NCBI RefSeq assembly: GCF_024521635.1
Contig: NW_026250412.1
Coordinates: 1,116,001-1,180,000, forward strand
Direction of reading: 5' to 3'
DNA from: Tricharina praecox
Lineage: Eukaryota
DNA: 64,000 bases
Of the stretch, positions 12,022-47,850 are shown piece after piece. The position numbers were made by a program, and so were the translations under genes. Under the pieces are notes generated by a model. It had not been told where the DNA came from. It was given only the letters and a program-made list of their open reading frames with translations, and made no database searches. Positions within the stretch are counted from its first letter, which is position 1. Each line of letters begins with the position of its first letter.

Positions 12022-12720
12022 TCTTTTTTTTGGTTCATTCATTGATTGCGTGCGACCTATCTAGATCAAGGCAATATCATCTACACGTGCCCCCCCCGTG
12101 CACCCCGCACCCGTACTCGCTCTCGCTCCCGCGCCCTCGAGTCGTCCCACCTCCACCGCAACTTTCTAGTCCGCTATTCTGCGTCGCTGAGCTCCTCAGC
12201 TTCGGCACCCCCTCCTCCTCCTCGAGTCGCCTCAGCTCCGCTCTCTCTTCCCGCTCCCTGAGCTCCCACTCGGATTCCTCACTTACTGCATCTTCCTCAT
12301 CGGCTTCTGGCATTCGTCTGCCCACATCGGTGGTGGAGAGGAACTCTAGAATGGCCTTGCTGCATCGCTCGTCTGCGAAGAGGTCCCGGAGTTTGAAGCG
12401 GTCTTTGCCCCTCCTTGTCTGCTTCCGGACTTCTGCCCAGAGAGTCTTTTGCTGACTTTTCCATTCAGGGGAATTTCTGAAGAGGTGCTCCCGAGTCTGT
12501 GTCTTGTAGCGGCACCAGCCGCAGCGGGCATCCGGGCGGCTCTTGGTCCACTGGAGGTACTGGTCGGCGAGGCAGTGTCCTGTCTTGAGTTGGTAAACTC
12601 TCGAGGCGAGGCGCTTGGGGGCCATCTCCGGATTTGGGTCAGGACGCTGGCCGGATTTCCGACTGTACCGGTACTTCTTATGAGTGATTCGGTTGTCCGC
12701 CCATATTTTCCCACGAGGAG
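12022..12720 (-). mobile_element. 5'-truncated non-LTR retrotransposon (LINE, Tad1-like) 3' end: ORF2 C-terminal zinc-binding region, 3' UTR and A tail
   Basis: YQLKTGHCL...CGWCRYKTQTREHLFRNSPEW...LFADERCSKAILEFLSTTDVGR. Ends tctagataggtcgcacgcaatcaatgaatgaaccaaaaaaaa. Confidence 0.85.
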
Positions 12721-12990
12721 CAGAAAAGCGTGTCACGTGGTATTTGTTACCGAGTGACACCGTGCTCGACCCATCCCTCCAAAAAACAAAAACCTTCACC
12801 ACCCATGTGGGTGGATTGGAAACCCCAATAGCAGAGGCTTTCACCTTGGGATTTGGATTCGAAAAATATGAAGTGGTGGGTACCCCGCAATAGACATTAA
12901 CAACCACCGAGCGCATGCATGTTTCCTCCATCTTACGCTGCGGCATCGTCTGTTTCGATGCCGAGGTGCTGGCTTCCATGCTACCAGGAG
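12721..12990 (-). mobile_element. Repeat family A copy 2 (tRNA-like part deleted)
   Basis: Reverse complement carries the GGGGTTTCCAA..CCACCC/GGGTGG hairpin, T-run and GTCACTCGG...CACGTGACAC end. Confidence 0.8.
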
Positions 12991-13482
12991 ATAATACTCT
13001 GCTCGAGGCTACCACCAGCCGGTCCAGCAACTTATCTCTATATATCTTCCCTCGGGTTCGCCACTTCCTGATCCTTCTCTTCATCCTTACTATCTCCCAA
13101 TATATTATCGAGGAAGAGATCATGGCCTAGTAAAGAAACAGCGGAAGACTCTCCTCCCTATTTCACTCCCTTTCTGCTGCCCTTTCCGTGGCCGCCGTTC
13201 AACCTCACCCCTGACCTCTCTGACCCGGTGATCGGATTATTTTGTTGATCCACCGCCGTCGCCCTAATGGTCGAGGTCCTGCTAAATTTTCACGCCTAGG
13301 GAAAGAATCTTGGGCCTAGGTACTTCCGTTTGCCTCAGCTCCGCGGATAGCCTGTTTTTCGCCTTGAACCTGTCTCTTGTATCGTCTTACCTCGATAGGA
13401 TTATTTGGACTCCTTGTCATACGTTTTGCTTCATCCATTCCCTCAATGATGAAGTTCATCGTAGGGATTCTGGCCTGTACAG

Positions 13483-13806
13483 CCGGCAGTGCAGGAGTGG
13501 AGAGAGTGATACCGCGTGCCCCGCTCGTCACAACAAAAACAAAAACCATCACCACCCATGTGGGTAGCTTGGAAACCCCAAGAGCAGAGGCTTTCACCCT
13601 GGGCTGAACTCAGAGGTTTCCTCGACTCCCCTCGCCGATTGCATGGCCTAGGTAGTTGACAACTAGACCACGCGGGGGTTTTTTGGTGATGGAAACTTGA
13701 ATTCGAAAAATATAAAGTGGTGGGTACCACCCCGCGACGGATAAGAACAGCGACGAGTTGCTGCCCGCCATCGAAGCATCTAGGTGACTCTTCCATCTCA
13801 CGCTGT
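13483..13806 (-). mobile_element. Repeat family A copy 3
   Basis: Near-identical to copy 1 over ~300 bp, including ccccgcgtggtctagttgtcaactacctaggccatgcaatcggcg. Confidence 0.85.
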
Positions 13807-13809
13807 GGG

Positions 13810-14030
13810 TTTACAGACGGCTTTTGTGCCAACACCGCTCCAGGCCGGAGGTGAGATCGAGAGAGAGCACACATAGAAGAAAGAGGAGATATGAGGGTTG
13901 GTGGTCTTTTCAGTAGATGATGAGCGAGAAAAAAGAAGGAGAAGAAGAAAGAAGACGACCCCGCTGGACCCACTCGGTCGACCCCGCCATATGTGGCCGC
14001 CAACGTTGATTCCCACCACTGTTGTTGCCC
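13810..14030 (-). repeat. Repeat family B copy 1 (probable retroposon 3' UTR/SINE)
   Basis: Matches 19395-19593 (inverted) and 20187-20400 (direct): agcacacatagaagaaagaggagatatgagggttgg...ccaacgttgattcccaccact. Confidence 0.75.
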
Positions 14031-14478
14031 ACGAGTCTGCCATGCGAGCGATCACACGACATAGAGAAGTATTCTCGCCGGCACTAATCTATTTAGGTAC
14101 TCTTGCTCTACGTCGAGGATCTAGATTACCAGTTTTCTTGTCAGCACCATTCTGCCGAATGCCGAGGGAAATGCTTTCGTTACAACTTACCAGCATCAAA
14201 CAGAGCCGGTGGCTTCCATATGTGGACTCGGTGAATGGGATTGCTCAAGGAACAACCCCATGCGTGAGGCGTGATGTGGGTACTAGTAAACAATGGGCAG
14301 AGTTGTTCTTGATGAGTCTACGATTGTTAGGACGAATTTTATCTTGGATGCAATGTCGTCTACTTTTCAGCCCGTAATTGCTGGAATGTCCCACTTTTGT
14401 TTGTTATCTCGTAACGTACATAGTCCACATTAGGCGCCAGTTTTGCAGACGGTTCTTGTGGGAGCGCATGTGTTTCTG

Positions 14479-14770
14479 GTGAGTAGTCCACTAGCCGTTC
14501 GAAGGACCGGTGGTGAGTGCTGGAATATTCGGTGCGGTAGCGGGTCCAAGTTTGTTTTTCCTTGTCCCTCTCTCTCTCTATCTCTCTCTCTTACATACCA
14601 CTTCACTTCTTTCCAACTTCATCGCACTAGCGAATCAACTCCACGAGTCCTTCCAACAGGATATGAGCCCGTCACCCAACACGCGCATCCAACCTTTTCT
14701 ACCGGGACACGGCTTTCCCCAACCCCTACGACCCGGAGATCGATGGCGAGCCGTCTAATGGGCTAATTAT
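14479..14770 (+). repeat. Dispersed repeat family C, copy 2
   Basis: Colinear with 981-1280. Confidence 0.55.
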
Positions 14771-14849
14771 CATCCGTACCCATTACACTCAGAGGAACTA
14801 CCTGCTCGAACTCGACATCTGTTATTACACGCATCTGCTGTGTCACAAG

Positions 14850-15368
14850 ATGAGCCTCGCCGAATACCGAGAGTATTGCTTGGATATCTACAAAGACATC
14901 CACCTCGGACGCGGCGCAATTGCTGAAGAGAGCTCCAGGCGTTCAACCGGTGCAGACGAGAGCGCCAGACAAGATCGCAAGGTTGCTGACGAGTTCGCTG
15001 CGTTGAAGCGATGGCTTGCTGAGTCAGAGCTCCTCAACAAACACCATGTTGATGCCCAGAAGCGTTTTTTGTCATCCGATGATGCAAAGGGGGGCACTAC
15101 CTCCGAGCAGACGATCAACGCCTCACTTGAGAGCTACGACGTGCAACCCTCCCACACCCAACACTCTCCCAATCACCCAACATCCTCGCCGAATACCTCG
15201 CCGAATATCTCAACGAACACCCTTGCCCAACTACCACATCTGCGCACAACACCTGCGCCCAACTCCCATGCCCCCGCCCCGCTGCAGCATGGTAGTAATA
15301 ACGATGACATCTTCCGTTGGGTTAGCAATCTCCGACTTTTCAAGCCTACAAAAGGTCGCATGTACTAA
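14850..15368 (+). CDS. Hypothetical protein (possibly spliced at its 3' end, or decayed)
   Basis: 172-codon ATG ORF with protein-like composition and a possible GTTAGC..TACTAAT..CAG intron at ~15321-15385. No recognised domain. Confidence 0.3.
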   Translation: MSLAEYREYCLDIYKDIHLGRGAIAEESSRRSTGADESARQDRKVADEFAALKRWLAESELLNKHHVDAQKRFLSSDDAKGGTTSEQTINASLESYDVQPSHTQHSPNHPTSSPNTSPNISTNTLAQLPHLRTTPAPNSHAPAPLQHGSNNDDIFRWVSNLRLFKPTKGRMY

Positions 15369-15499
15369 TGTGATTGATGGCACAGAAGCGTCTCGCAAAT
15401 GCAGAAGCACCACATGTCTTTCCTGAGTCCTCGGGGAGAGCCCCAAGATCATGGCGGTCCACAAAATAACATGAGTTGTTACTCAGATGTCCGATCAGC

Positions 15500-16330
15500 A
15501 ACAGTTGTTGTCGGATTCGACATAGCGTACTTGTACCTGTGTCCGCCCGGCGCCGGCAAGATGCTGGTGTTCCTTATGGCCACGCTGTAGCTGCTATGAA
15601 CGCCAGCGCCGCCAAGGTTCCGATCGATTTCGGGCCTGATTACGTGTCACGGCATAGCTGGATCGCAGCATACAATGCTGCAATGTCGTCAATCGCGACA
15701 GGTACGGCGAATTCGACACAGCGTACATGGATATGGGTTTGCCGGAAAGATACCGGCGGTCCTTGCGGCCACGCCGCACTGGCGGGAATCAACGCCGTCA
15801 AGAAGGTTCAGATCGATTTCGGGCCTGATTACAACAGCGTACTTGTACCTGTACTCAGCGTTCGCCGGCAAGATACCGGTGCTACATGCGGCCACACCGT
15901 GACAGTTACCCAAGCTGTCAAGAAGATTCCAATAGCTTTCCGTCAGTGATCTAGTTTAATGTCCTCGGGCATCAATAGACCGAGTTGGGAACGGACGGAT
16001 AGGATGGGACGGACGGATATTGTGGGACGGACGGATATCTTGGGACGGACGGATATCTTGGTATGTGTTTTTTGCTCCTATGTATCTCTTTAAATACTCT
16101 CTCCGTTGTCTGCTCTTTTTTGTTCTATATCTTCAAATCACATCTCCATCTTTCTCTCACTCGTTCGCTCAGATCCGCTTGACAAAACTTTCATGCCTGA
16201 TTACATGTCACGGCATAGCTGGAGCACAGCATACAATGCTGCAATGCCACCACTCCCCCGTGTTCCCAAACGTCCACCCCCGAGAGCAAGGGTGGATTAA
16301 GAAGAAAGTACGGACAACCGCCTAGGGGGG
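15500..16330 (+). mobile_element. Degenerate Mutator-like (MULE) transposase C-terminal region; SWIM zinc-finger segment present three times
   Basis: Across frames: RTCTC..RRQDAGVPYGHAVAA..PIDFGPDYVSRHSWIAAYN; CRKDTGGPCGHA; RRQDTGATCGHT; and at 16190 FMPDYMSRHSWSTAYNAAMPPLPRVPK. This fits the CxC..G.PC.H SWIM motif and the downstream motif of MULE transposases. Confidence 0.65.
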
Positions 16331-16679
16331 GATTTCCGGATATCGGATATCCCAGATCGCGCCCCACCGGACCGCTACTCAACATGTGATGGCATAGGCC
16401 ATTACGTTTCCACGTCCTGAAAGGCGCATACATCATGTACTTAGGCATTACTCTTAGTAAAAGAAGTTCTCAAGTAAAACGGAAGCGTGCTACTCTTGTA
16501 TTCTTTTGTGTAAACGGAGTGTGTGGGTGTGTATATTGCAATGATTTCGCTAGGTTGCATGAAATTAATGATCAAATAAATATAGAACGTGGAGGCGAGA
16601 AGAGAAGAGAGGAGACCCCACCGTGATATCCAGTCGGTGAGAAGCGGTTGGCCAGTCAGTTTGCCATCAAGACGTACGT

Positions 16680-17121
16680 GACTCGCAGCTGAGTATTTCT
16701 GGCATACCTAGCCTCATATTTATTCTCGTTCAAAACTCCTGTCGGCGGAAACATCGAAACCAATGGCTCCGCATCGAAATGGCAGGCGCCACCGCAGTGA
16801 GAGATGGAAGAATCCTCCAGGCGCTCTGATGGCGGGTGGCAGTTCGTCGGTGCTCATGTGTATCGCGGGGTGGCACCAACCACTTTATATTTTCGAATCG
16901 AAGTACCCAGCACGAAAAAACCCCCGCGTGGTCTAGTGGTCTAGGCCATGCAAACGGCGAGGGGAGCTGAGGGAAAGCTCTAGGTTCAAAGCTCGGCTCT
17001 TGGGGTTTCCAAACTACCCACCGGGGTGGTAAAGGTTTTTGTTTTTATTTTTTTGGCATCACGGGTGGAGCATGCTATATCACTCGGTGGAAACGACCAC
17101 GTGACATGCTTTGCGCTGCCG
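16680..17121 (+). mobile_element. Repeat family A copy 4 (long)
   Basis: Includes the 5' extension (gagtatttctggcata...), box A tggtctagtgg, ggttcaaa, the hairpin, T-run and CACGTGAC end. Confidence 0.85.
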
Positions 17122-17565
17122 AAGTGTGGAAGTAACTTCTTCAAAACCTGCTCACGGTGGAGAAGTCAACAGAAAGCCTTGTGGGTAAAGGCCGGGAAGG
17201 AGACAGAGAGAAGAAAAGAGAGGTGGTCGATAGCGGAGCTGTTCGCCGACGAGCGCAGCGAGGCAATCCAAGAGTTTCTAGGAACGACGGATGTGGGAAG
17301 GATACGCGGTGATAGGTTTTTTTTTGGAGCGGAAGCGGAAGACGAGGGAGAGAGGCGAGCGGGCAGCAGGAGGAGCGGTTATGTTGGCCCATATCGGTCT
17401 TTACTTGTCAATTTAATTTCTACTTTTTTCTTGTGTCAGCCCGAGGCGGATGGGCAGGGGAAGTGGGGCGCAGCATCGGACTGGCCGGTACCGGCCAGGG
17501 CGGGTAGGAAAAGGAGTTCGTCGGTTCGCCATAGTCTAGATAGGCTGCATGCGAAATAAAACAGG
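17122..17565 (+). mobile_element. LINE 3' fragment (same family as 12022-12720)
   Basis: FFKTCSRWRSQQKALW...ELFADERSEAIQEFLGTTDVGR; terminal tctagataggctgcatgcgaaataaaa. Confidence 0.85.
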
Positions 17566-17949
17566 AAGATCTCTCTCTCTCTAAATACCGAGGCTTTCAA
17601 CTCTCCACTCTGGTTTGACTGCACAACCTTTCTCCGAAGTTGCTGTTCACAGTCCAGACTCCAGGCAGCAGGCTCGGTGTGGACTTAAGCCCCGTACGTC
17701 TCCCGCGGCGCCCTAGGCCTGGGCCCTGGGCACAGAGAAGTGATGAACGCACCAAGCAGACGCAGAGAACAGGTGAAGAACAAAGTGTAGTGTCTGGAGC
17801 AATTTTGCAGTGGGCTACTGGTATCTTTGAGTCGGCCTAGGTTTCCACGTATCCTAGTATGTGCCAGTTTCTGACCCGGTCCCTCATAGGGCCGGGCACC
17901 TACCTGTTTCCACGCGCTCGCCACAACAGTGGCATCCCTCCGACGGAGG

Positions 17950-18436
17950 AGATATCGAGAGTACATACTTCGCTTCTTCGAGGGTACATCTCCTGTGCGG
18001 AGGCGTCGTCTAAGGAGCCGAAGCAGGTGACATATATTGCAGCGTGAGATGGAAGAAACATCCAGACGCTCAACTGCGGGGCACTCAGGTGGGGGGGTAT
18101 CGGGGAAGCAGAATACGCACCGAATTGATGGGCGTCACTTCATCGTTGTTGTTCTTGTCTATCGCGGGGTGGCACGCACCACTTCATATTTTCGAATTCA
18201 TGTCTCTGGTACGGAAAAAACCCCGCCTAGTCCAGTGGTCTAGGGCCACGCAATCGGCGAGGGAGCTGAGGGAAGTTCCCCGGTTCAAAACCGGGTGAAT
18301 GCCTATGTATTCAGCTCTTGGGGTTTCCACGCCACCCACCGGGGGTGGTGATGGTTTTTGTTTTTGGCATCACGGGTGGAGCACGCAATATCACTCGGTA
18401 GCATGGCATGACGTGACACGCCTTGTGATGCCGGCT
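17950..18436 (+). mobile_element. Repeat family A copy 5
   Basis: Contains a perfect T-arm CCCGG-TTCAAAA-CCGGG at 18279-18295, plus the hairpin, T-run and ATCACTCGG end. Confidence 0.8.
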
Positions 18437-18545
18437 CCTTTTTATAGTTTAATCAGCATTGCATTCGACCTTGGTAGATCATGGTAGATTATATCCGTTT
18501 CCACCCAGCCGTCACCGACAGCTGGCCGCGAGCTCGATACCGGTG
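18437..18545 (-). mobile_element. Short LINE 3'-terminal stub, antisense to the adjacent A copy
   Basis: Reverse complement ccatgatctaccaaggtcgaatgcaatgctgattaaactataaaaa matches the LINE termini at ~12030 and ~43450. Confidence 0.65.
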
Positions 18546-19394
18546 TGGCGGAGCGATGGAGAAGGGACCTGTGGGCTGACGAAAACGAATGTGGTTAGTA
18601 GTTTGATTGATTGATTGATTGATTATTCATACAGCATGGAACCCTAAAGTTATGGCCGGTAGAGGTATCTACAATACAACATTTTGACAAAGAAATTCCG
18701 CAACCAACTCCATGTAGAAGTGACAGCAAATCCCCTCGTCCTCGCAATATTTTAAAAGTGAGCCTCCAAAGAGGCTCGGGTTGTCGGCTTTGCGCTGTAG
18801 CGGCGCGTGGTAGCCCCCGGCTTCTCCAAAAGGTACCTCCACTCGGTACTACCCTCAACATAACTAGTCTAGCGCACACGGCATGGTGCTCGAAAGGAAT
18901 CGTCGTCTCGGGGTTTGCGTAGCTGTCAAGGCCGGGGCCCGATGAATAGCAGAGAAGATATTTGGATCGAAGGCGGGTTGGCAAAATGCCAGTCGTCGTG
19001 GTCAACGTTGTCCTGGGCCAAGCCCTGAGCTGCCCCCCTGGAGTTCACTCTCCTCCCCGCCGTCGCCATATCGCCTGCTGAACAGGCTCTCCTGGAGTGA
19101 TGAAATCGATGGTGATGTGCGGGGAAGCGATGGTGAGACTTCTTCTGAGGTTCGGATGTAGCACCCGTAGTGGTGCAGTTCTCCGGTCAGGGACCGAGGC
19201 TCGATTGATCTCTATCGCTTCATGCTCATCGTCGTCGAATTCGTCGGTCGGGGCACCTAATCCGCGGTCGGAAAGAGTGGACACACACGCCACATGAATC
19301 CTGAAGCCAAAGGGAGCGGGGCATTTGGTGTGCCAACGCATAGTCTTGGCATTTTTGGAAGGTTGGTGTGGTTCTCGGAGGTGTGTGTTGTGGT

Positions 19395-19593
19395 TAGTAG
19401 TGGGAATCAACGTTGGTGGGCATGGTGGGGTCGACCGAGTGGATCCAGTGGGGCGTCTTGTTGTTCTTCTCTCTTGATCATCATCTACCGAATAGACGAC
19501 CATCCTCCATATCACCTCTTTCTTCTGTGTTTGCTCTCCTCTGGATCCCGCCTCCAGCCTAGAGGGGTGTTGGTAAAAGAGCCGTCTGCAAAA
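19395..19593 (+). repeat. Repeat family B copy 2
   Basis: Inverted relative to 13810-14030 and 20187-20400; ends gccgtctgcaaaa. Confidence 0.75.
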
Positions 19594-19619
19594 CTGGAGT
19601 GGAACCGAACATGTAACAT

Positions 19620-20115
19620 CTAGTACTTGACTCGTATCTGAGTATTGCTGGCATAGAATAGGTATTGATTCTCGTCCACATCGCCTGCTAGAAGCATCGA
19701 AGCCAGTGCCTCAGCATCGAAATGGTACGCGATACCACAGCGTGAGATGAAAGAATTACGGTTTACCCAGGTGCCCTCAGGATGGCGGACGAAACCGCAG
19801 CGACAGATGAAGAATCCCCCAGACAATCCGATCTGGCGTTTGGCACTCCGTCGTTGTTCCTGTGCATCGCGGGGTGGCACCTACCAGTTTATGATTTTCG
19901 AATTCATATCTCTAGTACGAAAAACCCCCGCCTGGTCTAGTGGTCTAGGCTATGCAATCAGCGAGAGGAGTTGAGGAAAGCTCTGGGTTCAACCCAGGGT
20001 GAAAACCTCTCTCTTGGGGGTTTCCAAGCTAGCCACATGGGTGGTGATGGTTTTTGTTTTTGTCGTGACGGGTGGTGCACGCCATATCACTCGGATGTGA
20101 CTATCACGTGATTTA
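19620..20115 (+). mobile_element. Repeat family A copy 6 (long)
   Basis: Box A TGGTCTAGTGG at 19933-19943 and box-B-like GGTTCAACCC at 19986-19995 within a CTGGG/CCCAG stem. Confidence 0.85.
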
Positions 20116-20186
20116 CGTTTTTTTTTTGCGTTACTGGCTGCGTACTCTAGAATACATAGGCGAGGAAGAGGTTGAGGAGCTGGGTG

Positions 20187-20400
20187 TTGCAAACGGCTCC
20201 TTTGCCAACATCCCTCTAGGCCGATGGCGGGATCGAGAGCAGAGCACACACAGAAGAAAGAGTAGATATGAGGGTTGGTCGTCTACCTATTCGGTATATG
20301 ATCGAGAAAGAAGAAGGAGAAGAAGAAGAAGGAAACCTCGCTACAACCACTCAGACCCGGTTATGGCCACCAACGTTGATTCTCATCAACGTTGTTGCCG
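20187..20400 (-). repeat. Repeat family B copy 3
   Basis: Same orientation as 13810-14030. Confidence 0.75.
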
Positions 20401-20789
20401 ACTACCGTAGTACTAACCACAGTCATTTTAGCCCGCCGACAGGTCCTCTTCTCGCTCCCTCCTCTCGCTCCGTCACACTAGCGTGCCAGAGAAGACTAGC
20501 GTGTTCCATCCCAATCACGTCGTTGTTCCTGTAATGTTGGCGGTTCGGATATGACGGAGGACCGCGCGGGTATCCGAGGGCCGGAGAGAACTACGTAGAG
20601 TACCTTCCGAAGGGATCGTGTCTGGATACCCTGGTTCGTGAAGCTTGTACATAGAGAGATCTCGCTGCTCCCGATATTGTTGCTGTAGATGCCGAGTTGA
20701 TTAAATTCTTCTATATAGTTACCACGTTATTCATAACATCGCAAGGCCCCCACCACTTTAGTAGCGTCGAATTCAAGTTCTTAGCACGG

Positions 20790-21056
20790 AAGATTTCGAG
20801 AATATGTACTTATTCACTTCTTCGAGAGCATATCTCCTGCCAGGAGCATCGAAACCAGTCTCAACATCGAAATGACGGGTGGCACCGCAGCGAGGGACGG
20901 GTCATCACCTAGACGGTCCGATGTGGCGGGTGGAACCCCGGATATCACTCGGGTAGGCTCACATGACATGCTTTTGCGCTGCCGGCCTTTTTAGTTTGAT
21001 CTTCATCCGTTTCCACCAGGCTGTAACCCACAGATAACCGTGAGCTGGATACCGGC
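20790..21056 (+). mobile_element. Repeat family A copy 7 (large internal deletion) plus antisense LINE stub
   Basis: The 5' part matches 17950-18000 and 19690-19745. The end gatatcactcggg..tcacatgacatgcttttgcgctgccggc followed by tttttagtttgatc..catccgtttccacc matches copy 5. Confidence 0.7.
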
Positions 21057-21468
21057 TCGTAGTTATCGTATTCTAGCAATTACGGGCTCAAAAGTTGAAT
21101 GTCCTACCTACCTAGATAAAACCCGTTGTCGAGAACTGCGTACGTCCAAGTGGTTCCAAAAAACTGACCTCCTATCGAAGCGACCGAAACTTTGAGCTGT
21201 CCATGCATGTGAGAGAGAACATCAATTGCCATCCCGCATGATGGTTGCTCGATGCATTGATTAAAAGCGTACAAGGCCTCGGCTGAATTCTTGATTCCTT
21301 GTGGCTGTGCACACTAAGCAAACGAGGCGCACGTCAGAACCTAGAGTATGTAGCCTTGCAGCACGCGCCTTATCGATAGCCCGCCAAACCTTTTCTCAAC
21401 CTCACCTCGCGTCACGGTCGCGTCTTCCCCCACCACAGGTCCACAGCCCGCCACCACAGCCCGCCACC

Positions 21469-24400: not shown

Positions 24401-24644
24401 GCAAGCAGCACTCGAGCAAGAAGTCTCCTTCAACGCGGCGCGCTCCTTCCACCACCTGGGCCTAACCCACCTAGCAATACCTTACTACCACCGCTGCCTC
24501 GAGATCTCAGACACATGGGCGGCGCAGGGCGGCGTAGCGGGCGATCTCAAGTGGGAGTCCGCATACATGCTGCAGATGATCTATGTCACGAGCGGGAACA
24601 TGACGGAGGCACGGCGCGTTACGGAGCAATGGCTAGTCGTGTAG
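21469..24644 (+). CDS. TFC4: RNA polymerase III transcription factor TFIIIC TPR subunit (Tfc4/Sfc4/GTF3C3). Exons 21469-21545, 21627-24154, 24208-24644
   Basis: Acidic N-terminus and TPR array (LMGEANQAFAF..AWKILGEIF..AAHAKPKDWELW), LPLELRVKLG, and C-terminal YLHRSMQRQSENRH..FNAARSFHHLGLTHLAIPYY. Two canonical GT-AG introns restore the frame. Confidence 0.93.
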
Positions 24645-24704
24645 GTAGATTATTTCGTATGTAGAGGTACATCCATGCATGCAATGCAATCAATGAAATG
24701 AAAA

Positions 24705-33418: not shown

Positions 33419-35557
33419 GCTTGTATGGGCCTATGGGGTTCACCGGATAGGAGGACGGATAGTGGACCTGGGATGAATCGGTTACATGATGTAAATAATG
33501 TTGGTAGTCCGTTGTTAGACGAGGCGCATATAGGACGGAATGTGCTCTGTCTTTTGGATTTACACTGTTCGTGAAGAAATACATCACTGTTGGGACCAGG
33601 GAGACGCGTTATACATGCTAACCGATCGTGCAGATCACTCACCGCTAGTTAGTCCAAGCTAACCATCATATGTAGCTACGGGAACGGGAGAACTATCATT
33701 AGTGGACGTGTTTAGCTAGATTTACCACTATATACATCGTGGGACGGGACGAATAACCGAGTCCCGACAGACCCAAACGAGACGACACGCCGGGCAGAAC
33801 TGAAAAACCCAGCTCGGCTCGCCTTGTTATGTAACCTCTCAACACACCGCCAATCTCAAAGATCAATAACTACTATGTAGGCGATTTGTTAGTAGTTAGT
33901 GATAGGTATTGTCCTTGTAGATAATCCTTATTAGGAAATTAATCGATGCGTTAGGCATAAAAACCCCGGTAGATGGGTCCTCTAGGGATAGTGGTACCTC
34001 AGTAGCTGTACTGACGAGCATCTGCCACTTGAGTTGATAAATCTCGCCAGATCTTACGGTGTATCATGTCCCAAACGAATTGTATGGAACACCTTTCGAG
34101 GCGCGGATGTCCGGGACTCCGGGGCCACTAGTTGGCAGCATGCCGCAATGCCAGGGATGGGTTGTAGATGGATGCATGGGCGCGTCAGTTGCAAACAGCA
34201 TCTCTCGTATTTGCTAGTGGATACGCTGTTAGTTTGGTTTGTATCCACTGTTTTTTTTTTAGGAGGGGGGTACGGCAGGCAGATATTCACACGTTATTTA
34301 GTGATTAGTAACTATCGTAATGAGCGTTCGCCAATAGGTGTTCATGTTCCGTAGCGGGATCCGTCATCCATATACAGTAGTATACCAAGTTCTAGCCACG
34401 GAGGACGAACGTATGTAGTCCTAGGCTGAAGAAGGCAGAGTACCTATGTAGTAGGCTCGAGATTGGGGCTGTTTCCTCAGAAGTTTCCTCAGCAGTTTCC
34501 ATTATGACATCGGGTGCTGATTTCCCAGACGGCGGGCGGCGGGTGAGGGGGAACCGGTCTCGGGATCTCGGCCCAGTGGTGGATGGGATACCAGTACCAG
34601 CCCACCAGGGCTGAGTGTACAATATACATCCTTGATCTACCTACTAGGTAGCTCGGTTGTGTGCAATCCATCATCCATGATGAAAGGAAAGGAGAAGGAA
34701 AACTCTAAGGGAATAAAGAAAACGACATTCACTTCGCCCGGCCGAACCCACAAGGGTTCGGGCCATATCGCCGACTGACGACGGACACATTTCCGACGCT
34801 GTCAAGACTCGGAAGCAGGTCGGCATTGATGGTATAGTACATACGGATGGGCCGTGGAAACCAGCTCAGGCTGCGGAATCCGCTGCAGGATGATGAGGCA
34901 TGGTTCAGGGAGCGGTGGAAAGGGATCAGGGGCGGTTAGCTGGGATCTTGGGACAGAGGCTACTGAGGAAACGGAGGGAACAACCCTCGAGAGTGCGGAG
35001 TATACTCTACTAGTATGTAATGGATGGTGATCTACCCTTTAGCGTACAACTCATCCAGTCCGTGATGATAATCTACATGTAGTACCTAGAGTAGAGTACC
35101 AGGGATAGCCAATAAGACGTGCCTCACCACCATTACGAATTGTAAGCCCAAGGTGAGGCAACACTTACCGTTACACCCAAGAACTCTACCGTTATTATTT
35201 AGATATCTGGCCTTGCTAACCACCCCCCGGCGATAGGTAAGGTTTTGCCTGTGGAAGCTGTTTGGTTTTCCCGACGGACAAGCCGCCTCCCCCAGGGCCC
35301 CGGTGAGTCCAACCAGCGAACCCACCAAGCCCGCCTGTCTCACTCGTCTATGCATCATACACCTGCTGGTTCGTTAGAGTAGTTGGCTGCGTGCCGGTAC
35401 TTTCTTTTCCCGCCGTAACTGACTAGCACTCGCTGGTCATCATAAAACCGACCAACCCCCCGAACGCGCATGACCGGCTGAAATCCGGAAGATGCGACAC
35501 TTCTGAACTTGCCCCTTTTCCATCACGAAAACATAATCACTGCGAACGACGATAGCG

Positions 35558-40100: not shown

Positions 40101-41156
40101 CGACAAGGAAGTGCTGTTCAAAGTTTGAAGGCGCTGGAGACGAAGATTTTTAACGAATTGAAATCACTACGGGGAGGTGTTGTCTCTGATCTATTGGATG
40201 TGTACGACCTTCAGGACCGTTATGTCGCGCAAGATATCCTGGAAAAGATGAGAAAAAGGTTCAAAGAACAGCCAAACACGATAGCTTCACACATCCGCCG
40301 CACCCGCCGGACCGAACCATGGTACCTGCTGTCCCCGCGGAGATTCCATTCAATGGTTATAGGTGAAGGCCCTACACCGAGCCGAGATACCGCTGGAACC
40401 GATATCTTTGATGCTACGGTATTTCATTATGCTGTCGGCAATAAACACCAGCAGAATCCCTTGAACAACACCAGACTCACGCCTCCCGCTATCACGATTT
40501 TTCTTCCCTGTGTCTCAGACATAAACGTTGTAGACATCACCGGGCATACACCCTTGCACTGGGCCAGCAACGGCGGGTTTGAAGAAAGCATTTCGACTCT
40601 TTTGCAGCGCGGTGCGGATATGATGATTCGAGGTAGTGACGGAGTAGGACCATTACATTGTGCAGCGAGGTCTGGTAAAGCTACGGTCGTCGAACAGTTG
40701 CTGGACGCAGGAGCCAGCCAGGCAATCTATGATCATTTGCGACAAACACCACTGCATTGGGCAGCTTACTATGGGAATGAGGAGGCGGTGGGTCTACTTC
40801 TGCACAGAGTGGCATCCATCGACGTAAGAGACGACTATGAAAGAACTCCTTTACACCTTGCAGCGATCACGGGTTCTCTTGGAGTTGTCCAGAGGCTAGT
40901 AAAAGACTCCGATATGAGTCTTGAAGATCAAGATGAAAAGTCAGCGCTGCATTTGGCGGCCCGTGAGGGCCACGAGGCGGTTTTTCGCCTCCTACTCGAA
41001 TATCATGTGGACAAAGACGCGAAATATCACATCGGGCGGACAGCGCTGCATTTGGCGGCGCATGAGGGCCACGAAGCGGTTGTTCGCCTCCTACTTGATC
41101 ATAGTGCCGGCGAGAATGACGCGGAGGACTATGAGGGACAGTCGATTATGGACTGA
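37163..41156 (+). pseudogene. Multi-pass membrane plus C-terminal ankyrin repeat protein with four in-frame stops. Introns 37268-37328 and 37693-37752
   Basis: A single reading frame after splicing, with stops TAG 37362, TAA 38904, TAA 39024 and TGA 39477. Six ankyrin motifs (TPLHWASNGG, GPLHCAARSG, TPLHWAAYYG, TPLHLAAITG, SALHLAAREGH, TALHLAAHEGH). Confidence 0.85.
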
Positions 41157-42471
41157 GCGGATTTTTCCTTTTTCATTTTTTTTATTAGGACTGGCAAAGA
41201 AGGACTTACCGCAGCCCATATCTAGTACGTTGAAAAATAAAAGGCTCACATTGAAATTGAAACCCCGAATGGGCTCGAAACCACTACCGTATATAGTACC
41301 GTCTAGGTGGTATGAAATGAGTGATGCCGGTGCACGACACATCAAACATCCCAAATCAGCATGAGCCGTCAACCCAGAGATTGCAGAGACTTGTTCTGGT
41401 TTGAAGGCCGGCTCCTGAGATCTAAGACCTCTCACAGCTCCCTGCGGGTCGATACAGTGCTGCTGATGCTAATTTAGCCGACTTGCTGTCAGATTCTATC
41501 ACTCTATCTCGTGACTTTATTGCCGAATTCCAAACCTTGAGAGAACCAACTTGCGTGCACTACCGGTACCATACTGCGCAAGTAACATATGAGCCAACCG
41601 CGATTGACCGCCTTGCTGTTAAATCCGCATCATGATGCAGCAGTCGCTCGCTCTCTGCTCCTCCGAGTTTGCCATATGATCCCTGAGATGGCATCTGTTC
41701 CGGCTAGAACGTAGAAGCCCTTCGTAGTGAGGCAGTCTACCGGATCTCCTCCATCGCGTGAAGTTTGCGGTAGAGCCAACTATCGATTCAAGCTCTATCA
41801 GGATTCAGTATATAGTAGTACATACTACGCAATGCAAATTGAGGCCTCAACGTCATCCGCAACATCATGCCGTTGTGGAAACAGATGAGATTCCGAAATG
41901 GAACCACTGTCTTTTCAATATCGTAAGCCTTCATCAACCATACAAACCGTAATGCATGCACGAACATGATATCTTCACTCTATGGCTTCTACCTTAGCTG
42001 CCTGAAATCACATGAACCAAATTTTAGCAGTAGACGGGTTCAAACGGTTAGCCCAGATGGCAGGCATAGCTTGCGTAGGAAAGAACTGAAGACGGATTGC
42101 TTACCCTGATGCTAGGAAATCAGCGTAGAGCACCGGTGCAGAGCGATAACATCTGACTACACATCCGGATTCCCGAGCCGCTGCGTTAAGATGGACCGCA
42201 CAGTAACTACCGACCTACACGCTGGAACTGTACCTGCACTCCGACAGCCGTCTACAAACTATCTGTATGGCACACAGGGCCGTCAACCGTCCTTCCGGAC
42301 TACAGTCCACTAGTGGACTGTAGTCCCGTCCCGTCCCGGGCAGGCTTTCCAGAGGACTGATCCATTCCGTCCGGAGGATTAAACGCCCAGATACCCGCTA
42401 GGTACCTATATATAGGTACCTGATAGCACTAGCGTTCTATGCTGACTACTAGTTTGCGGAGTAGTAGTACA

Positions 42472-42931
42472 TATGGTTGGGGACGGCTATACCCGATGGA
42501 AAAACACCCCTAACTTTGACACCTATCTCCGCCACCAAATATTTTTTTTTGAACAAAAACTCTCTATTAATCGATAGAGAATCTCATGGCCGTAATTTTA
42601 ATAACGTCCGATTAATTTAAGACACGTGGTTGTGGAGAAGAAGAATCTAGAAAATAAATCATTTTGTATGGAGGCCAACCCAATGCCCCTCCCCTGGATC
42701 ACCCAATTCACCCATGCTTGCACTGAATTTGCTCATTCTTGGCCCATGAGCGGGTAAGCCAAGAACCATTTTAAGCTAGTATCTGGACTAAATAGGCCAA
42801 AAATGGAATTAAAAATGCCTATTTTTGCTAAAAAAAAAAACTCAAAAAACTCAATTTATTACCCGTTTTGTAATTAATTCGACTTTTCTACGAATGTCCC
42901 ATTCCATCGGCTCTAGGAGTCCCCAACCATA
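42472..42931. mobile_element. MITE / non-autonomous DNA transposon, 460 bp
   Basis: Left end TATGGTTGGGGACggCTAtAcCCGATGGAA; reverse complement of right end TATGGTTGGGGACtcCTAgAgCCGATGGAA. TA at both outer ends and an AT-rich non-coding interior. Confidence 0.85.
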
Positions 42932-43448
42932 GCGCGGTGGCTACCATCAGAGTTTTCAGAGTCGTCAACCAGGTTCAGGGGATAGACACGTGCCAGAAGT
43001 AGGAACGGGGATGATGTAAACGTTCAATACCGTGAGAGACACTGTGAAATACAGCTGCACAGCCACACATCCGCACACCGGTGCCGCTGTGTGGTGCCAC
43101 GCCGCTTGCATTGTCCCAGTGTTCCAGTCAATTCCGGGCCCTGTAGGGTATCCGTCCTCATTTCTCCAGCCCGGAAGACTGGAGTCCTTGGTCTCCTCAG
43201 TCCGACTAATTTCGTCCCGGGCCAGGCAACCCCAAAAACGGATGGGACGGACGCTTGACAGCCCTGACTGCGACTCAAAAATGCCACGGCACGGATACGC
43301 AGTGAGGTGAAGCGGTGGACATTTCGACGGTACGGATACTTTATTTCTTTTTTCTCTATAAACAAACACTCCCTTAGCTAATCACGAGACTGATCGTGAC
43401 AGCTTCGGCTGCTGGTATCTAACTTGATGGATGTGTGGCTCTGAACAG

Positions 43449-44335
43449 TTTTTTGTTTCATCATCGTAGCATTCGACCTTTGCAGATCATGGCTGTGTAC
43501 ACGACCAGTTCCACCCCAGTGTCTCCGACCGCTGGCCGCGAGCCCGATGTGGGTTCCCTATTGCCCTCCGCCCGGCCCATCCGCGCATAACAAAGGGAAA
43601 GATAGAAAGAAGTAACAAATCAGATGACAAAAAAGGAAAGGAAAGGAAACATGTCAGTATTCTCTCCAAACCTGCCTCAAAGCCTCCTAGCCAACTCCTC
43701 TAGCCTTTCTAATGCCTCATCTCTTCCTGCGTATGCCGGAATCTCCGGCCGACTAGCCCGTACACTTTCCTCCGCTCTTGCTCTCACCGCGTCCCAGTCT
43801 ATCACTTTGCCCGGGGCCGGAGTTGGTGTTGGTGTTGGGGTGTCCGGTGCCGGCGGTGCGAGATTCGGGGGGGGGGGGGGGGGGGGGGGGGGGTGGGGAG
43901 AAAGAGAAATTCCCCAGCCCGTCGCCTCTCTTCTGCTGCCACTACTCTTTCTGCCGCCACCGCTCTCGCTCCTTCTCTCACTTCTCCTGCTATGGGGTAG
44001 GTGGGATCCGCCGCTGCCGCTGCCAAGTCAGAAGTCTGGCTCAGGAATTCTTGTTACTCTTACCCGAAAGGGGATACTTGTGGGCCCACATCACTGGTGG
44101 TGTGGAAGCAGAGGATGGCCTTGCTGCACTCTTGGTTGGCAAAGAGGTCCCTGATCTTAAACCTATCCTTCTCTGGGCCAGTCTTCTTTCGCACCTCCGT
44201 CCACAAGATCTTCTGTTGCTCCCTCCACTGCGTGCAGTTCTTGAACAGGTGTTACCGGGGTTGGGTCTTGTACCCGCATGGCTCTGAATCGTATCGCTCC
44301 ACACATTGTCACTCCACACATTATAACTTACCAGC
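43449..44335 (-). mobile_element. Degenerate LINE 3' fragment
   Basis: YKTQPR*HLFKNCTQWREQQKILWTEVRKKTG..DRFKIRDLFANQECSKAIL..TSDVG and FLFLPTP. 3' terminus gccatgatctgcaaaggtcgaatgctacgatgatgaaacaaaaaa. Confidence 0.8.
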
Positions 44336-44791
44336 GAGTGACACCACGTGCAGCACTTTACTTTGTTTTAACTTCAGATAGATATCCTTGGCTGCGATTA
44401 CGAATCACGATGGATACCCAGAGCGTTTGCCGTGCGAGGTAACTATTGGTCAATCGTGAGATGGTATCATCAGCACACTGTCGCGGTGTTCGCCGAAGGA
44501 GTCGATTCTACACAGCCTCACAGGTAGAACTGCGCAGGCAAGACTTTTATAACGCCCACCTTCTTTCCTAGGTACTGGTACTTTTCACCGCACACATGAA
44601 GGGCACTCGGCAGACTCGCAAACCAGACCTAATGATAACAGGGAACCGAACAAACACACAAAGACTACCGAAACCGAAAGACGTAGATGATGACATATCG
44701 TCGTGAAACCCCCCAGCCAAATAAAGAAACAAATAAATCTTTTCTCGAGAGGAAAATGACATAAAAAACACAAACCCGCGCCCCACCACGA

Positions 44792-46462
44792 TCATCCAAG
44801 ATTGAGTTTAGCCGCGGCCTGGAGGAGAGTGGAAGTAACACGCAAGGAGCGGCTTCTCGAGGGTGCGTATCGGCGATCGTACGCGGTCTCGAGCAGGTCG
44901 TGAATGAGCTGTTCCTCGTCGATGTATTTATCCGTGAGCCTTCCGCCCTTCTTTTCCTCCTTGGGGATGATAGTTTTATTGCGTTTCTCCCAGCGCTGTT
45001 CCTCGAGGTGGAGGGTATGGTCGAGCACGCACTCGCGACTGACGATGTAGACGCGCGGCGGGGGTTCGAGGTCGCCGGGCTTGCAGAGCCCGGATTTTTC
45101 GAGGTTCTCTTGCAGGTTCTTGCGTGTCGTCGTGACGAAGAGCGTGCGTGCCTCAGGGGTCGAGCATTGCTCGTCGTCGGCGAGATTGCGGATCTGCATG
45201 TTCGCCTTGGACCGCACGATAAACACGGGGATCTTGAACCGCCGACAGTTGTCGAGGACATCGGCGTCGATCTGAGTGAAGCGCTGTGGTAACCGGTTAG
45301 GAAGAGACGCCAGCTGTTTGGTTGCCCGGCAGTAGAGAGAGAGGTATGTTAAGGGCAAGACGGGACATGAAGGAAGGGTGGAAACTCATACATTATCATA
45401 AACCAGAACGATAAAGTCGAATATGAACAGCCCTTGTTGATTGAAGTACTGCCATGCGGGAATGTTAAAGGTACCGGCGCCCGGAACATCGAACCAGATG
45501 AAACGCGGATATGGCATTTCCTTGCGGGGGTCTGGATACCTCGTCACTTCGAGCGTCGTCTCGACGATTCCAACATCCGCGGCTCCACCATCGCCCTTTT
45601 TCAGACCGCGGAAGGAATTGATCAGCGACGACTTGCCGCTTCCACTGGGGCCGCAGACGGCGAAATGCAACCGCTCAATGTCGTACTGGACCTTTGCTTC
45701 GGCGGCGTCATACTCTTCCTGCGTGGGCAGCACGACCGGCTGGATTCCTTTGGCGAGCTTCCTGTTGGTCTCTTCGAGCTCGCGCTGGAAGGCGGCATGT
45801 TCCTCTTCGGCTAGGCGCTGGCGCTCCTCCGCCTCCTTCCTGGCTTGCTCCTCTCGACGTGCCGCTTCTTCCTCCCGACGCTTACTTTCGAGCTTCTGCT
45901 TCTCCATCTCGCGCAGGAAGTTGGCCCTGTCTTCGTCCGCGCGGCGCTGTCGCTCCTCGGCCTCCTTCCTGAGCTGTTCCTCTCGAGCGCGGGCCTCCGC
46001 CGCCTCCTGTTGGCGTTTCTTGGTCTGCGCCGCCTGCTCATCGATGCGGCGCTGGTGAGCCGCCCTCTCTTCGGAGCTCTTCTGCAGCTGCGCGGCCATC
46101 TCTTTCCTCAGCTTCTCCTCTCTCTCCTTCGCCTGCCTAGCCTCCTCCTCGCGTTTCTTCGCCTGCACCTCCTGCTCCTCGAGCCTCTTCAACGCCGCAT
46201 CCATCTTTGCCTTTTCCTCCTTCCTCTTCCGCTCCTCTTCCTCCAACCTCTTTCTCAGCCGCTCCGCCTCCTCTTTCCGTATACGCTCGTCGTTCTCCCT
46301 CCTCTTCCTGTCCGCCTCGTCGCGGTTCCAGCAGTCTTCGTCCTGCTTCCTCTGCCACTCCGCGTGCTCCCGCTGCTGCTTTGCTTGCTGCTCAAGGTCA
46401 CGGCGCAGCGCCTCGACCGTCTTGTTGTGATTTTCCGGTGGCTTGCAGTGTCCTCCTCCCAT
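44792..46462 (-). CDS. Interferon-inducible (IRG/IIGP-like) P-loop GTPase with a long N-terminal charged coiled coil, ~520 aa. Exons 46462-45392 and 45283-44792
   Basis: G1 AVCGPSGSGKSSLINSFRGL, G2 AADVGIVETT, G3 WFDVPGAG and G4 IVRSKAN; canonical 108-nt intron GTATGA..CTAAC..CAG. Confidence 0.88.
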
Positions 46463-47154
46463 AATTTGGTTTTCTGCGGGGCGGGGGCAGGTTGGTGGCT
46501 ACGTGAGGGCCTCAGCCTTGGACGAGGGCTTTAGCCGGATAGGCAAAGGAGTGACTTATAGACGGAGGGGTATATCCTTCGACCGAAGGCGAAGACTTGG
46601 GAAGAAAAGTGGGGGCGCGGAGAGGCGTGGGGGAGCGGAGACTGGCGGGAGGAGGGCCCGGGGTTATATACATGATGAGAACAAATACAAACACACTCCT
46701 CCCTATAGCAGGCGGGCCATCGGCGGACCCTGCGCGGTGTGTTTGAATCCCACCGTTGTTACCGATACAATCGCCCCGCCCCGCACTGCGCAGGCAGCAG
46801 CGGGAAGACGGATAGACACCGACGATCAAACTTCACTCCATTGGCTCCCGCGTGTTCTATCGGACGAAGCAAATTTCGCCTGGAATGCACCGTGCGTGGC
46901 CGGTCGCTAAAAGCGGGCCGCTGAGGCCCGCGGGGGCTCTTGGCTTCTTTAGTTATTGTTGATCGTGCCGAAAAACAAAACAAAAACAAACTTCGATGGG
47001 CGTGGAGGATCAATGGGGAGGGGCAACTGCAGATGTTGTGTTACTTGAGCTTCATATCCTCGCTGGTGACTGGCGAGGCCAAGACGAGGCTGCGCTGCGC
47101 ATCAGCAGCTCCGTTGCTGATGGAGGAGTACATACCCGATCGCCGCTGAGTGGA

Positions 47155-47475
47155 AATGTAAAACAACATATCCTGTTTTACTGACGTTGATCCAGTAACA
47201 GTTTGCAATCAGATGGCTGCCTAAGTACGTGGCCACCCGCTTGCTCGCTCGCGGCTCGGCCGATCGAAGGCGGCGACGTGATTGGAAGGTTTGGCTTCCC
47301 CCGCCGTCCGCCCTAGCCTGTCCCATCGACACATGGAGGTAGATCGCACCAAGGAAATAATACCAATAAAAAGCAGCTTCACTCTTCGCATCTTCTGCAG
47401 CATATGCAATGGCAGAGGATGTGGAGAGAAACAGCGGGAGCGACCCCAGCACCTCAACCTCTTCCTCGCGTGCAC
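47155..47475 (-). mobile_element. LINE extreme 3' fragment
   Basis: EEEVEVLGSLPLFLSTSSA resembles the ORF2 C-terminus (FLFLPTP in the 43.9 kb copy), followed by a UTR with gggacaggctagggcggacggc. Confidence 0.55.
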
Positions 47476-47850
47476 GGCCGGCAGTGCAACGAGATGTCAC
47501 GTGATTTGGCCAAGTGATATCTGGTGCTCCATCCGTCACGTCAAAAACAAAAACCATCACCACCCCCGGTGGGTGGCTCGGAAACCCCTCTTCTCCAGGG
47601 AGTCGAACCGCGAAATCTTCGCGCAGGGTGGTGGCCTAGCCGACAAGACCACGCGGAGGTTTTTTCCGTGCTGGAAACGTGAATTCAAAAGCTATAAAGT
47701 GGTAGGTTCCACCCCACGATGAACAGGAACGACGACGAAGTTATTCTTCCGTCGCTCGCTGGTCGTTACTGGGGCATTGGCTTCGATGCTTTGAGGAGAT
47801 GTAAACCAGAATAAATACAGTGCTACGCCAGAAATACTCAGCCAACTGCT
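47476..47850 (-). mobile_element. Repeat family A copy with the most tRNA-like head
   Basis: Minus strand CTCCGCGTGGTCTTGTCGGCTAGG...GGTTCGACTCCCTGGAG, with box A at 47651-47640 and a consensus box B at 47609-47599. Confidence 0.8.

Follow-up and report, generated by a model that had tools for sequence, protein, structure and literature searches.

Recurrent junctions between a fungal repeat and LINE 3' ends: evidence for nested insertions at a local hot spot in the spacer of the repeat

Introduction

This study concerns a 64-kb stretch of DNA from Tricharina praecox (contig NW_026250412.1, positions 1,116,001 to 1,180,000), hereafter the window, and in particular a repeated sequence within it, element A, which stands again and again beside 3' fragments of a long interspersed nuclear element (LINE). 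An earlier, sequence-only reading of this DNA had seen in these junctions a chimeric retroposon system, with A acting either as a head driven by RNA polymerase III (Pol III) and fused to the LINE by template switching, or as a sequence whose 3' end is a preferred LINE target. Here we describe the A units and the LINE pieces, and argue that the recurrent junctions are probably nested LINE insertions into a spacer within the A unit. All counts of A and LINE copies cover this one stretch of the genome. The DNA has a fungal look, with Pfam matches that include chitin synthase, GCD14, DUF3433 and ankyrin/TPR proteins, and Pfam found no reverse-transcriptase domain among the 145 window open reading frames (ORFs) of at least 125 aa.

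Results

Element A is the body of a longer repeat unit

In a self-BLAST of the window, element A is a repeat of ~300-450 bp with copies 68-85% identical pairwise. An nhmmer profile built from six copies recovers its six sources and two further, rearranged ones, which bears out the earlier description of A as a repeat and gives eight loci in total: 3497-3946(+), 12717-12994(-), 13457-13884(-), 16702-17121(+), 17947-18440(+), 19655-20161(+), 20744-20988(+) and 47457-47825(-).

One A unit is uninterrupted (3497..4075, +; nhmmer 3497-3946, E 1.3e-119; BLAST to other copies from 3576). It consists of the A body to ..CTGCTGGC (3905), then a spacer, X (TGTGGAGAAGAGAAG..), and then ~150 nt that form the opening of the following unit. 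At this point ..CACGTGACACCCCTTGCCCCTTCTGCTGGC (3905) passes unbroken into the purine-rich X (TGTGGAGAAGAGAAGAG..), which is followed by sequence found upstream of A in other copies. Parts of the window region are also covered by contigs from four soil-metagenome sequencing runs (the run-contig tables give the best-supported rows, and summed depth in them is not copy number). A single run contig spans 3782-4491 with one differing letter, and thus the continuity from A into X is no artefact of the window assembly; among the best-supported run-contig rows listed, none lies at the A-end junctions. Spacer X also precedes A at 16589 and at 47905. Element A thus forms the ~465-bp body of a repeat unit that, together with a ~95-nt spacer, measures ~560 bp, and the boundary between body and spacer reads ..CACGTGACAYGCTTTGCGCTGCCGGC followed by TGTGGAGG and the purine-rich tract. 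The proposal that ...CTGCCGGC is the 3' end of A therefore fails, as in the intact copy A runs on into the spacer and the next unit. The units lie head-to-tail, with four (+) in 16.6-21.0 kb and two (-) in 12.7-13.9 kb.

Among the other copies, the unit at 16589..17121 (+) comprises spacer X and then an A body ending ..GCGCTGCCG (nhmmer 16702-17121, E 1.9e-122, and alignments), the copy at 17947..18440 (+) ends ..GATGCCGGC (nhmmer 18102-18440, E 3e-98, and 17947-18072, E 3e-16), and the copy at 19655..20183 (+) retains its spacer X (..GGCGAGGAAGAGGTTGAGGAGCTGGG; nhmmer E 9.8e-131 and spacer alignment). The copy at 47457..47825 (-; nhmmer E 4.4e-91) has a spacer X that runs on to ~47400 (spacer alignment). 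At 13457..13884 (-) the 5' part of A is replaced, from profile position ~103, by another repeat, B (nhmmer E 1.5e-118; BLAST 13504-13811 versus 20092-19792). The two copies outside the model set are one with its core deleted internally (12717..12994, -; nhmmer 12850-12717, E 4e-31, and 12994-12847, E 2.5e-21) and a rearranged one ending ..GCTGCCGGCC (20744..20988, +; nhmmer 20813-20940, E 4e-13, also 20744-20791 and 20941-20988).

Repeat B is ~220 bp long, begins TGTTGCAAACGG and is present at 20181..20402(+), 13806-14032(+) and 19396-19594(-), with 77-79% identity by BLAST. Its 5' boundary is identical in all three copies, and it abuts A units at three different places; its other end is marked by a boundary at 19389 that is common to 17 contigs of run X1. 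The A copies at 3576 and 13811 have an identical B/A breakpoint, so composite pieces have been copied.

A direct similarity of ~16 nt flanks the A body, for example at 16623-16640 and 17076-17092 (TGATATCCAGTCGGTG and TATATCAC-TCGGTG), and likewise in other units. Either an old target-site duplication of the A body or the termini of a long terminal repeat (LTR) could account for it.

LINE 3' ends in the window

The 167-aa frame at 12221-12721(-) matched 93 proteins at E<=1e-3 among 673 candidates, mostly with RNase H and/or RVT_1 domains. These included a 1302-aa ORF2 protein, P0011, with Exo_endo_phos, RVT_1 and RNase_H domains (PF03372, PF14529, PF00078, PF00075). The LINE is a non-LTR retrotransposon with an apurinic/apyrimidinic endonuclease (APE), a reverse transcriptase (RT) and an RNase H, and the pieces in the window are its 3' ends. 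It appears to be Tad1/I-like. When the window was compared with P0011 by tblastn, only C-terminal pieces were found, namely aa 1118-1256 at 12703-12281(-) (E 4e-46), aa 1179-1243 at 44278-44084(-) (E 9e-20) and aa 1179-1245 at 17107-17304(+) (E 2e-13). For the pieces themselves we used a profile of the ORF2 C-terminus (95 sequences, 204 positions) and a leave-out profile of the tail, trained on four long LINE pieces only. The 3' ends have a common motif, ..GATCT..GGTCGAATGC..GATGAAAC, followed by an A-rich run and then GRA.

Three pieces retain ORF2 sequence. Piece L1 (12021..12705, -) contains the ORF2 C-terminus, from aa ~1118 to 1256, the 3' untranslated region (UTR) and a tail, A8GAA (tblastn E 4e-46; C-terminal profile E 2e-75), and it confirms the sense LINE junction reported at 12720. 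A second reported sense junction, at 17122, is equally real, and is formed by piece L2 (17122..17582, +), which has an ORF2 profile match at 17137-17310 (E 5e-20) and a tail, ..AACAGGAAGA(TC)n, that the tail profile follows to 17566; positions 17122-17136 may be spacer or LINE, and run contigs have loose ends at 17560 and 17582. Piece L3 (43446..44278, -) spans the ORF2 C-terminus, the 3' UTR and a tail, and matches P0011 at aa 1179-1243 (tblastn E 9e-20) as well as the C-terminal profile (E 9e-29). The sequence-only reading had each LINE piece starting at a different position; the three begin at profile positions 21, 84 and 94 of 204, so they do differ, but two of them are only ~10 aa apart.

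The remaining pieces are tails. L4 (16476..16588, +; leave-out tail profile 16528-16576, E 2e-3) passes directly into spacer X of the next A unit, and L5 (47906..47998, -; leave-out profile 47910-47969, E 1e-3) likewise passes directly into X (47905-47855) and an A copy. L6 (18441..18572, -) and L7 (20989..21069, -) are antisense to A, and abut GCCGGC and GCCGGC(C) respectively. L6 is matched by the tail profile (E 2.6e-30), and its 18441-18538 is 75% identical to 43449-43548 by BLAST; L7 is matched by the leave-out profile at 21002-21062 (E 3.6e-4), and 18493-18543 aligns with 21005-21055 at 80% by BLAST. The antisense tails proposed at 18437 and 20987 thus stand. Repeated sequence, which may or may not be LINE, continues past L6 to ~19596. 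The sole LINE 3' end in the window that is away from any A unit lies at 34537..34700 (+; leave-out tail profile 34537-34667, E 1e-3), and a purine-rich run follows there too. Neither the supposed LINE tail at 20612-20707 nor repeat B was matched by the leave-out tail profile.

At the 47.5-kb locus, the proposed sense LINE at 47475 has neither an ORF2 nor a tail match, and is spacer X itself (..GCGAGGAAGAGGTTGAGG..), as its alignment to the 19655 copy's spacer shows. This locus does have a genuine LINE tail, L5, but on the opposite side.

Two side observations concern LINE tails. Just past the GCCGGC of the 13.5-kb A copy, at 13380-13450(-), the sequence ..CCCTACGATGAAC..GGATGAAGCAAAAC is tail-like by eye and has no profile match. 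One abundant LINE subfamily (17555-17582 and run contigs) ends GAAGA(TC)n and not in an A-run, where (TC)n may be part of the element or a microsatellite target.

Target-site duplications and junction positions

For each piece, the longest direct repeat at its flanks was compared with 500 shuffles. Piece L1 (685 bp) is flanked by a perfect 13-bp repeat, TTTTCCCACGAGG (+ strand), at 12008-12020 and 12706-12718; none of the 500 shuffles reached 13, and the null maximum was 8. When L1 is excised in silico, the 12.7-kb A copy becomes colinear with the intact copy from the A end across X into the beginning of the following unit. The part of the unit beyond L1 (11850..12007, -) is the remaining X and next-unit start, colinear with 3905-4075 of the intact copy, and 11980-12077 matches 16533-16631 at 72% by BLAST. 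The junction between L1 and A is bridged by run contig 12641-13082.

Piece L3 (833 bp) is flanked by a 10-bp repeat, TGGCTCTGAA, at 43436-43445 and 44279-44288 (0/500 shuffles). Upstream of it, at 44289..44360 (-), is what by eye and alignment appears to be a degenerate remnant of the A body end and spacer (..GCACGTGGTGTCACTCG..), with no nhmmer match. The A fragment that had been placed at 44335 is weakly supported to this extent, in that ~25 nt match the A body end by eye, although nhmmer is silent. At the other side, where an A end had been placed at 43449, nhmmer is also silent near 43.4 kb, and there is likeness at the motif level 33 nt away. The picture of two inward-facing A ends bracketing the LINE of 43.4-44.36 kb is not upheld, as the 10-bp duplication makes both flanks one interrupted site.

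Both L1 and L3 have the hallmarks of insertion by target-primed reverse transcription, which are 5' truncation, an A-rich 3' tail and a target-site duplication of variable length (7-20 bp). In both, the duplication flanks the LINE alone. As the duplications surround only the LINE and A continues past it, these are ordinary target-primed insertions into A and not template-switch chimeras.

The junctions can be compared in A-sense coordinates, with the boundary GCCGGC/TGTGGAG as position 0; the boundary GCCGGC/TG stands in the sequence ..GCGCTGCCGGCTGTGGAGGCGAGAAGAG... In the sense orientation, the duplication of L1 extends over spacer positions -2 to +11, the tails of L4 and L5 stand immediately before X, each at about +1, the 5' junction of L2 lies within 0 to +15, and L3 lies at about +24 to +33 in a degenerate spacer. 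In the antisense orientation, the tail of L6 is at 0 and that of L7 at 0 or +1. Both orientations meet at one boundary, the sense tails of L1, L4 and L5 preceding the start of X and the antisense L6 and L7 abutting GCCGGC.

LINE ends cluster in the A spacer

The leave-out tail profile identifies eight LINE 3' ends in 64 kb, and seven of the eight have at least one end in the ~95-nt spacer of an A unit. Of the 11 spacers that can be recognised, 7 are occupied by a LINE piece, by our own count. The LINE-like insertions within A units are in the spacer, and the ~465-nt body is interrupted by repeat B alone. The spacers make up roughly 1-1.5% of the window. In hand calculations that assume independence, the chance of such clustering is <1e-5 (taking five independent events and a repeat-rich target of ~15 kb), and the probability of a 5/6 split between spacer and body, where the spacer is 17% of the unit, is about 7e-4. 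The data support a local insertion hot spot for the LINE in the A spacer. The earlier suggestion of a preferred LINE target survives in this form within the window, but the target is an internal spacer and not the 3' end of A.

Relatives of A in metagenome contigs

A motif scan of metagenome contigs gave 36 loci, and in 28 of them there is homology to A that is limited to its central ~200 bp (profile 172-416). These 28 fall into at least three subfamilies with different tails, and the common part ends at a T-run. In one subfamily (L007, L023/L028, L031, L036), whose junction is constant, the A core is followed by ~90 nt from the LINE 3' tail and by (A)n. LINE ORF2 fragments lie within 2 kb of 10 of the 28 loci. 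The tail profile gave only four matches on the metagenome loci and was uninformative.

At one locus, L002:985-1035, there is a minimal LINE insertion of 17 nt, ATGAAAC(A)10, with a 13-bp duplication, CATTATCACTAGA. It lies ~25-40 nt past a conserved GAATATCA motif, and the empty form is present in L017, L019 and L030. This is an independent LINE insertion in the equivalent region of a related element.

A 12-bp repeat in L002, GTCCGTGAAGAT, was also considered as a duplication around a 660-bp insert, and was rejected since the conserved IFTD is encoded in each copy and the copies belong to two different LINE fragments. A predicted 351-aa metagenome protein, P0001, has a C-terminal ORF2 fragment joined directly to a fragment with RNase H and the C-terminus; this layout means that two 5'-truncated LINE pieces stand head-to-tail in one frame.

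The A core and the class of A

By eye, A carries motifs like the A-box and B-box of Pol III promoters, GTGGTCTAGTGG and GGTTCAACCC, judged against the consensus of such boxes and located >200 nt inside the unit. No tRNA was detected in A, with 0 genes in ARAGORN, 0 gathering hits in Rfam and no tRNA match at E<=10 in 16560-17140. Every A copy has a conserved hairpin and a T5GT5 run after the tRNA-like stretch, and the run lies ~90 nt before the supposed fusion point. A run of this type is expected to stop Pol III transcription. Compensatory changes supporting an RNA structure of the core were found in 0 of 34 predicted pairs.

A core of ~140 nt (for example 16915-17054, or L002:812-953 and 17 other loci) is common to the window copies and at least three metagenome element subfamilies. 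Its order is A6C5, the A-box/B-box-like segment, a CTGGG/CCCAG hairpin, GGGGTTTCC, a CCACC/GGTGG hairpin and T5GT5, and the subfamilies that carry it all diverge directly after the T-run. From its sequence, this core looks like a self-contained Pol III-type unit that is reused by different elements.

Two readings of the class of A remain, one as a non-autonomous LTR element of the type of Helenus and other miniature retrotransposons with terminal repeats (TRIMs), and the other as a unit like a short interspersed nuclear element (SINE), or some other unit, amplified in tandem. In favour of the TRIM reading are the direct repeats, the short purine-tract spacer that separates them, ends that read TGATATCC..GGATATCA, and the occurrence of such elements in fungi. 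Against it, GATATC is palindromic, the GATATC..TCGGTG direct similarity also flanks the body, and a gap of 8-9 nt separates the purine tract from the body that follows. By our own estimate the chance of a TG..CA-type end reading in A is roughly 0.15. No A copy in the window has both outer ends intact, which are the ends at which a 5-bp duplication would show. In the metagenome relatives, the start motif is absent in 26 of 28 loci, and a second copy within 2 kb was found in 0 of 28. As to a tRNA-derived SINE, the tRNA-like part of A does not open the unit at its 5' end, and no constant junction between A and a LINE tail is seen in the window.

Other features of the window

Between the L3 site and the 47.5-kb A copy, at 44795-46498(-), there is a gene with an IIGP (interferon-inducible-GTPase-like) domain after a long, repetitive, coiled-coil-like stretch. 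Perfect 45-bp tandem repeats lie at 48891-49032 (100% identity over 97 nt), and a long array of short tandem repeats at 56021-56519 (~90% identity in many registers) lies within overlapping long ORFs of several frames.

Discussion

We consider it likely that the recurrent junctions between an A end and a LINE are nested LINE insertions into the spacer of the A unit at a favoured spot. On this explanation, 5'-truncated LINE copies would have been inserted repeatedly into the spacer, in either orientation, by target-primed reverse transcription, and most of these insertions, falling within a few bases of GCCGGC/TGTGGAG, would generate the same junction again and again. We infer that the insertions were mostly independent events, and the clustering may reflect a preference of the LINE endonuclease, or of the priming step, for this boundary, where a GC palindrome meets a polypurine/polypyrimidine tract. 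An APE-type endonuclease might favour a nick at this boundary, with the bottom-strand nick made after the pyrimidine run; nicks made by the L1 retrotransposon (as distinct from our piece L1) likewise follow a pyrimidine run.

Several points weigh against this explanation. The independence of the insertions is unproven, since arrayed units could multiply spacer-LINE junctions by duplication; one type of junction is common to L1, L4 and L5 and a second to L6 and L7, and the most conservative count of independent events is about five. L2, L6 and the B piece (17122, 18441 and 20184) gave no target-site duplication, their best repeats being reached by 416, 489 and 333 of 500 shuffles, respectively. 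The two nick positions do not fit a simple model of palindromic recognition, and the mechanism leaves the antisense nicks at the same phosphodiester position unexplained. In addition, run contigs with an L2-type tail (19-23 contigs in run X1) agree as far as GAAGA(TC)n and then have different flanks (agreement 0.41-0.68), so this abundant LINE subfamily is not restricted to A units; LINE bins are also far above A bins in summed depth, though depth is not copy number. Finally, the evidence comes from one 64-kb window of the genome.

The idea with which the study of this locus began, that the LINE RT jumps to the 3' end of an A transcript and that A and LINE integrate as one, as in MINE or U6-L1, now seems very improbable. 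It would account for the 5'-truncated LINE 3' parts that follow A in sense at 12720 and 17122, for their different truncation points, for the absence of a duplication around the LINE alone at L2, the one junction that may still be of this kind, and for the metagenome subfamily in which core, tail and (A)n have a constant junction. However, the T5GT5 run ~90 nt upstream of the junction would end a Pol III transcript before the fusion point, and no tRNA was found in A. Template switching also requires an RNA copy that is complete to its own 3' end, duplications around the whole chimera and a common orientation (PMC2104539), whereas A continues past the junction, the duplications of L1 and L3 surround the LINE alone, and the junctions at 18441 and 20989 are antisense. 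Nor is A the 5' UTR of internally deleted LINE copies, which the sequence-only reading had named as an outcome that would overturn it. A different kind of history, in which one or two ancestral spacer insertions were multiplied by array expansion (unequal crossing-over or segmental duplication) in an old graveyard of transposable elements (TEs), with no hot spot at all, is unlikely in our judgement. The head-to-tail clusters of A units are what it would predict, A copies and LINE tails are similarly diverged (68-85%), the same tail/X junction recurs in L1, L4 and L5 and the same antisense junction in L6 and L7, and the B/A breakpoint common to the copies at 3576 and 13811 shows that composites have been copied. 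Yet the pieces differ in orientation, in LINE start and in where they sit within the spacer (0, +24 and about +45 nt), which implies at least five distinct events. L3 is 30 kb away with a duplication of its own, and the micro-insertion in L002 is an independent event in another organism. The 13-bp duplication of L1 is perfect despite ~20% divergence of A, for which the chance, by our own arithmetic, would be about 0.04 if the duplication were of the same age as the A copies, and L1 thus looks younger.

We give hardly any credence to the proposal that the spacer and the 3' part of A are old LINE-derived sequence, with the junctions made by recombination, gene conversion or microhomology joining. 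The intact spacer CTGCTGGCTGTGGAGAAGAGAAGAGAAAG does match L2 ORF2 sequence at 23 of 29 nt, a score that 0 of 300 shuffles reach, and TGTGGA at the start of X corresponds to Cys-Gly codons where L2 and L3 begin. Against this, the 95-sequence ORF2 profile matches none of the spacers, even when run unfiltered with E allowed to rise to 1000, seven of nine spacer-LINE alignments lie within the range of shuffles, the matching stretch is low-complexity and GA-rich, and homology leaves the antisense tails unexplained. Two further candidates, X as part of the LINE and A as the 3' module of the LINE, were both ruled out by the 13-bp duplication and by the L002 insertion, which shows that the LINE ends ..ATGAAAC(A)n. 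There is also a bolder extension of the nested-insertion explanation, towards which we remain doubtful, in which the A spacer would be a semi-specific LINE landing pad, on either strand and in at least two fungi, and A a Helenus-like TRIM bearing a tRNA promoter, with the LINE habitually nesting in the linker between its primer-binding site (PBS) and its polypurine tract (PPT). If true, this would be a 'safe-haven' relationship of two retroelement classes, undescribed for Tad1-like LINEs.

If the clustering of nested insertions holds genome-wide, it would reveal that a fungal LINE prefers, to a measurable degree, a target within another repeat, which would help to explain the growth of TE nests and the choice of sites by LINE endonucleases. 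This work also draws attention to an uncharacterised repeat with a ~200-bp core that is common to several element subfamilies in another fungal metagenome. Furthermore, it provides a worked example in which 'fusions' that recur at a single point of a repeat can turn out to be nested insertions, recognised as such by target-site duplications around the inner element.

Among known systems, Tx1L in the Tx1D transposon and R1/R2 in ribosomal DNA insert at one nucleotide and in one orientation in nearly all copies. The LINE described here resembles them in landing at a defined site of another repeated sequence, but differs in its use of both orientations, a spread of ~50 nt, the 34.6-kb end outside A and an abundant subfamily with varied flanks. 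In the MINE (WEIRD-MGL) and U6-L1 chimeras, the duplications surround the whole unit, and its 5' partner stops where its 3' end naturally lies (Gogvadze et al., 2007; PMC2104539). As in those chimeras, non-LINE sequence is followed here by sense, 5'-truncated LINE 3' parts of varied length; in contrast to them, A runs on past the LINE, only the LINE lies between the duplications, and some of the junctions are antisense. A classical SINE with a LINE-derived tail, such as Mg-SINE with MGL (PMC2104539), is similar to the metagenome subfamily with core, ~90 nt of tail and (A)n, but the window has no constant A/LINE-tail junction, and the tRNA-like part of A is not 5'-terminal and has a T-run inside it.

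Helenus elements are TRIMs with a tRNA-like sequence in the LTR; they are found in fungi, and tRNA finders mostly reject that sequence (Kojima, 2024; PMC10886601). The A unit is like them in having direct repeats with A-box/B-box-like motifs and a short spacer with a purine tract. It differs in that the A repeat is ~465 bp, compared with reported LTRs of up to 323 bp (PMC10886601), and the purine tract is 8-9 nt off the next repeat; the 28 metagenome relatives are all single copies, and neither a 5-bp duplication nor a demonstrable PBS was found for A, among whose copies in the window none keeps both outer ends.

A search of the literature, in a limited library and with no repeat database, gave no report of the A element, nor of any Tad1-like LINE that prefers a target in this way. 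In human TEs, position-specific hot spots for nested insertion have been described genome-wide (Levy, Schwartz and Ast, 2010; PMC2836564). Those hot spots share with the A spacer the landing of retroelements at particular positions and orientations in an older repeat, an effect of target choice, and the use of nested copies and target-site duplications as evidence; the present case differs in that it concerns a fungus, an RNase H-bearing LINE, an uncharacterised target of ~560 bp and one window. The closest known phenomenon is this position-specific nesting of retroelements in older repeats (PMC2836564), of which the junctions in the A spacer are a new fungal example, and not a new chimeric retroposon system.

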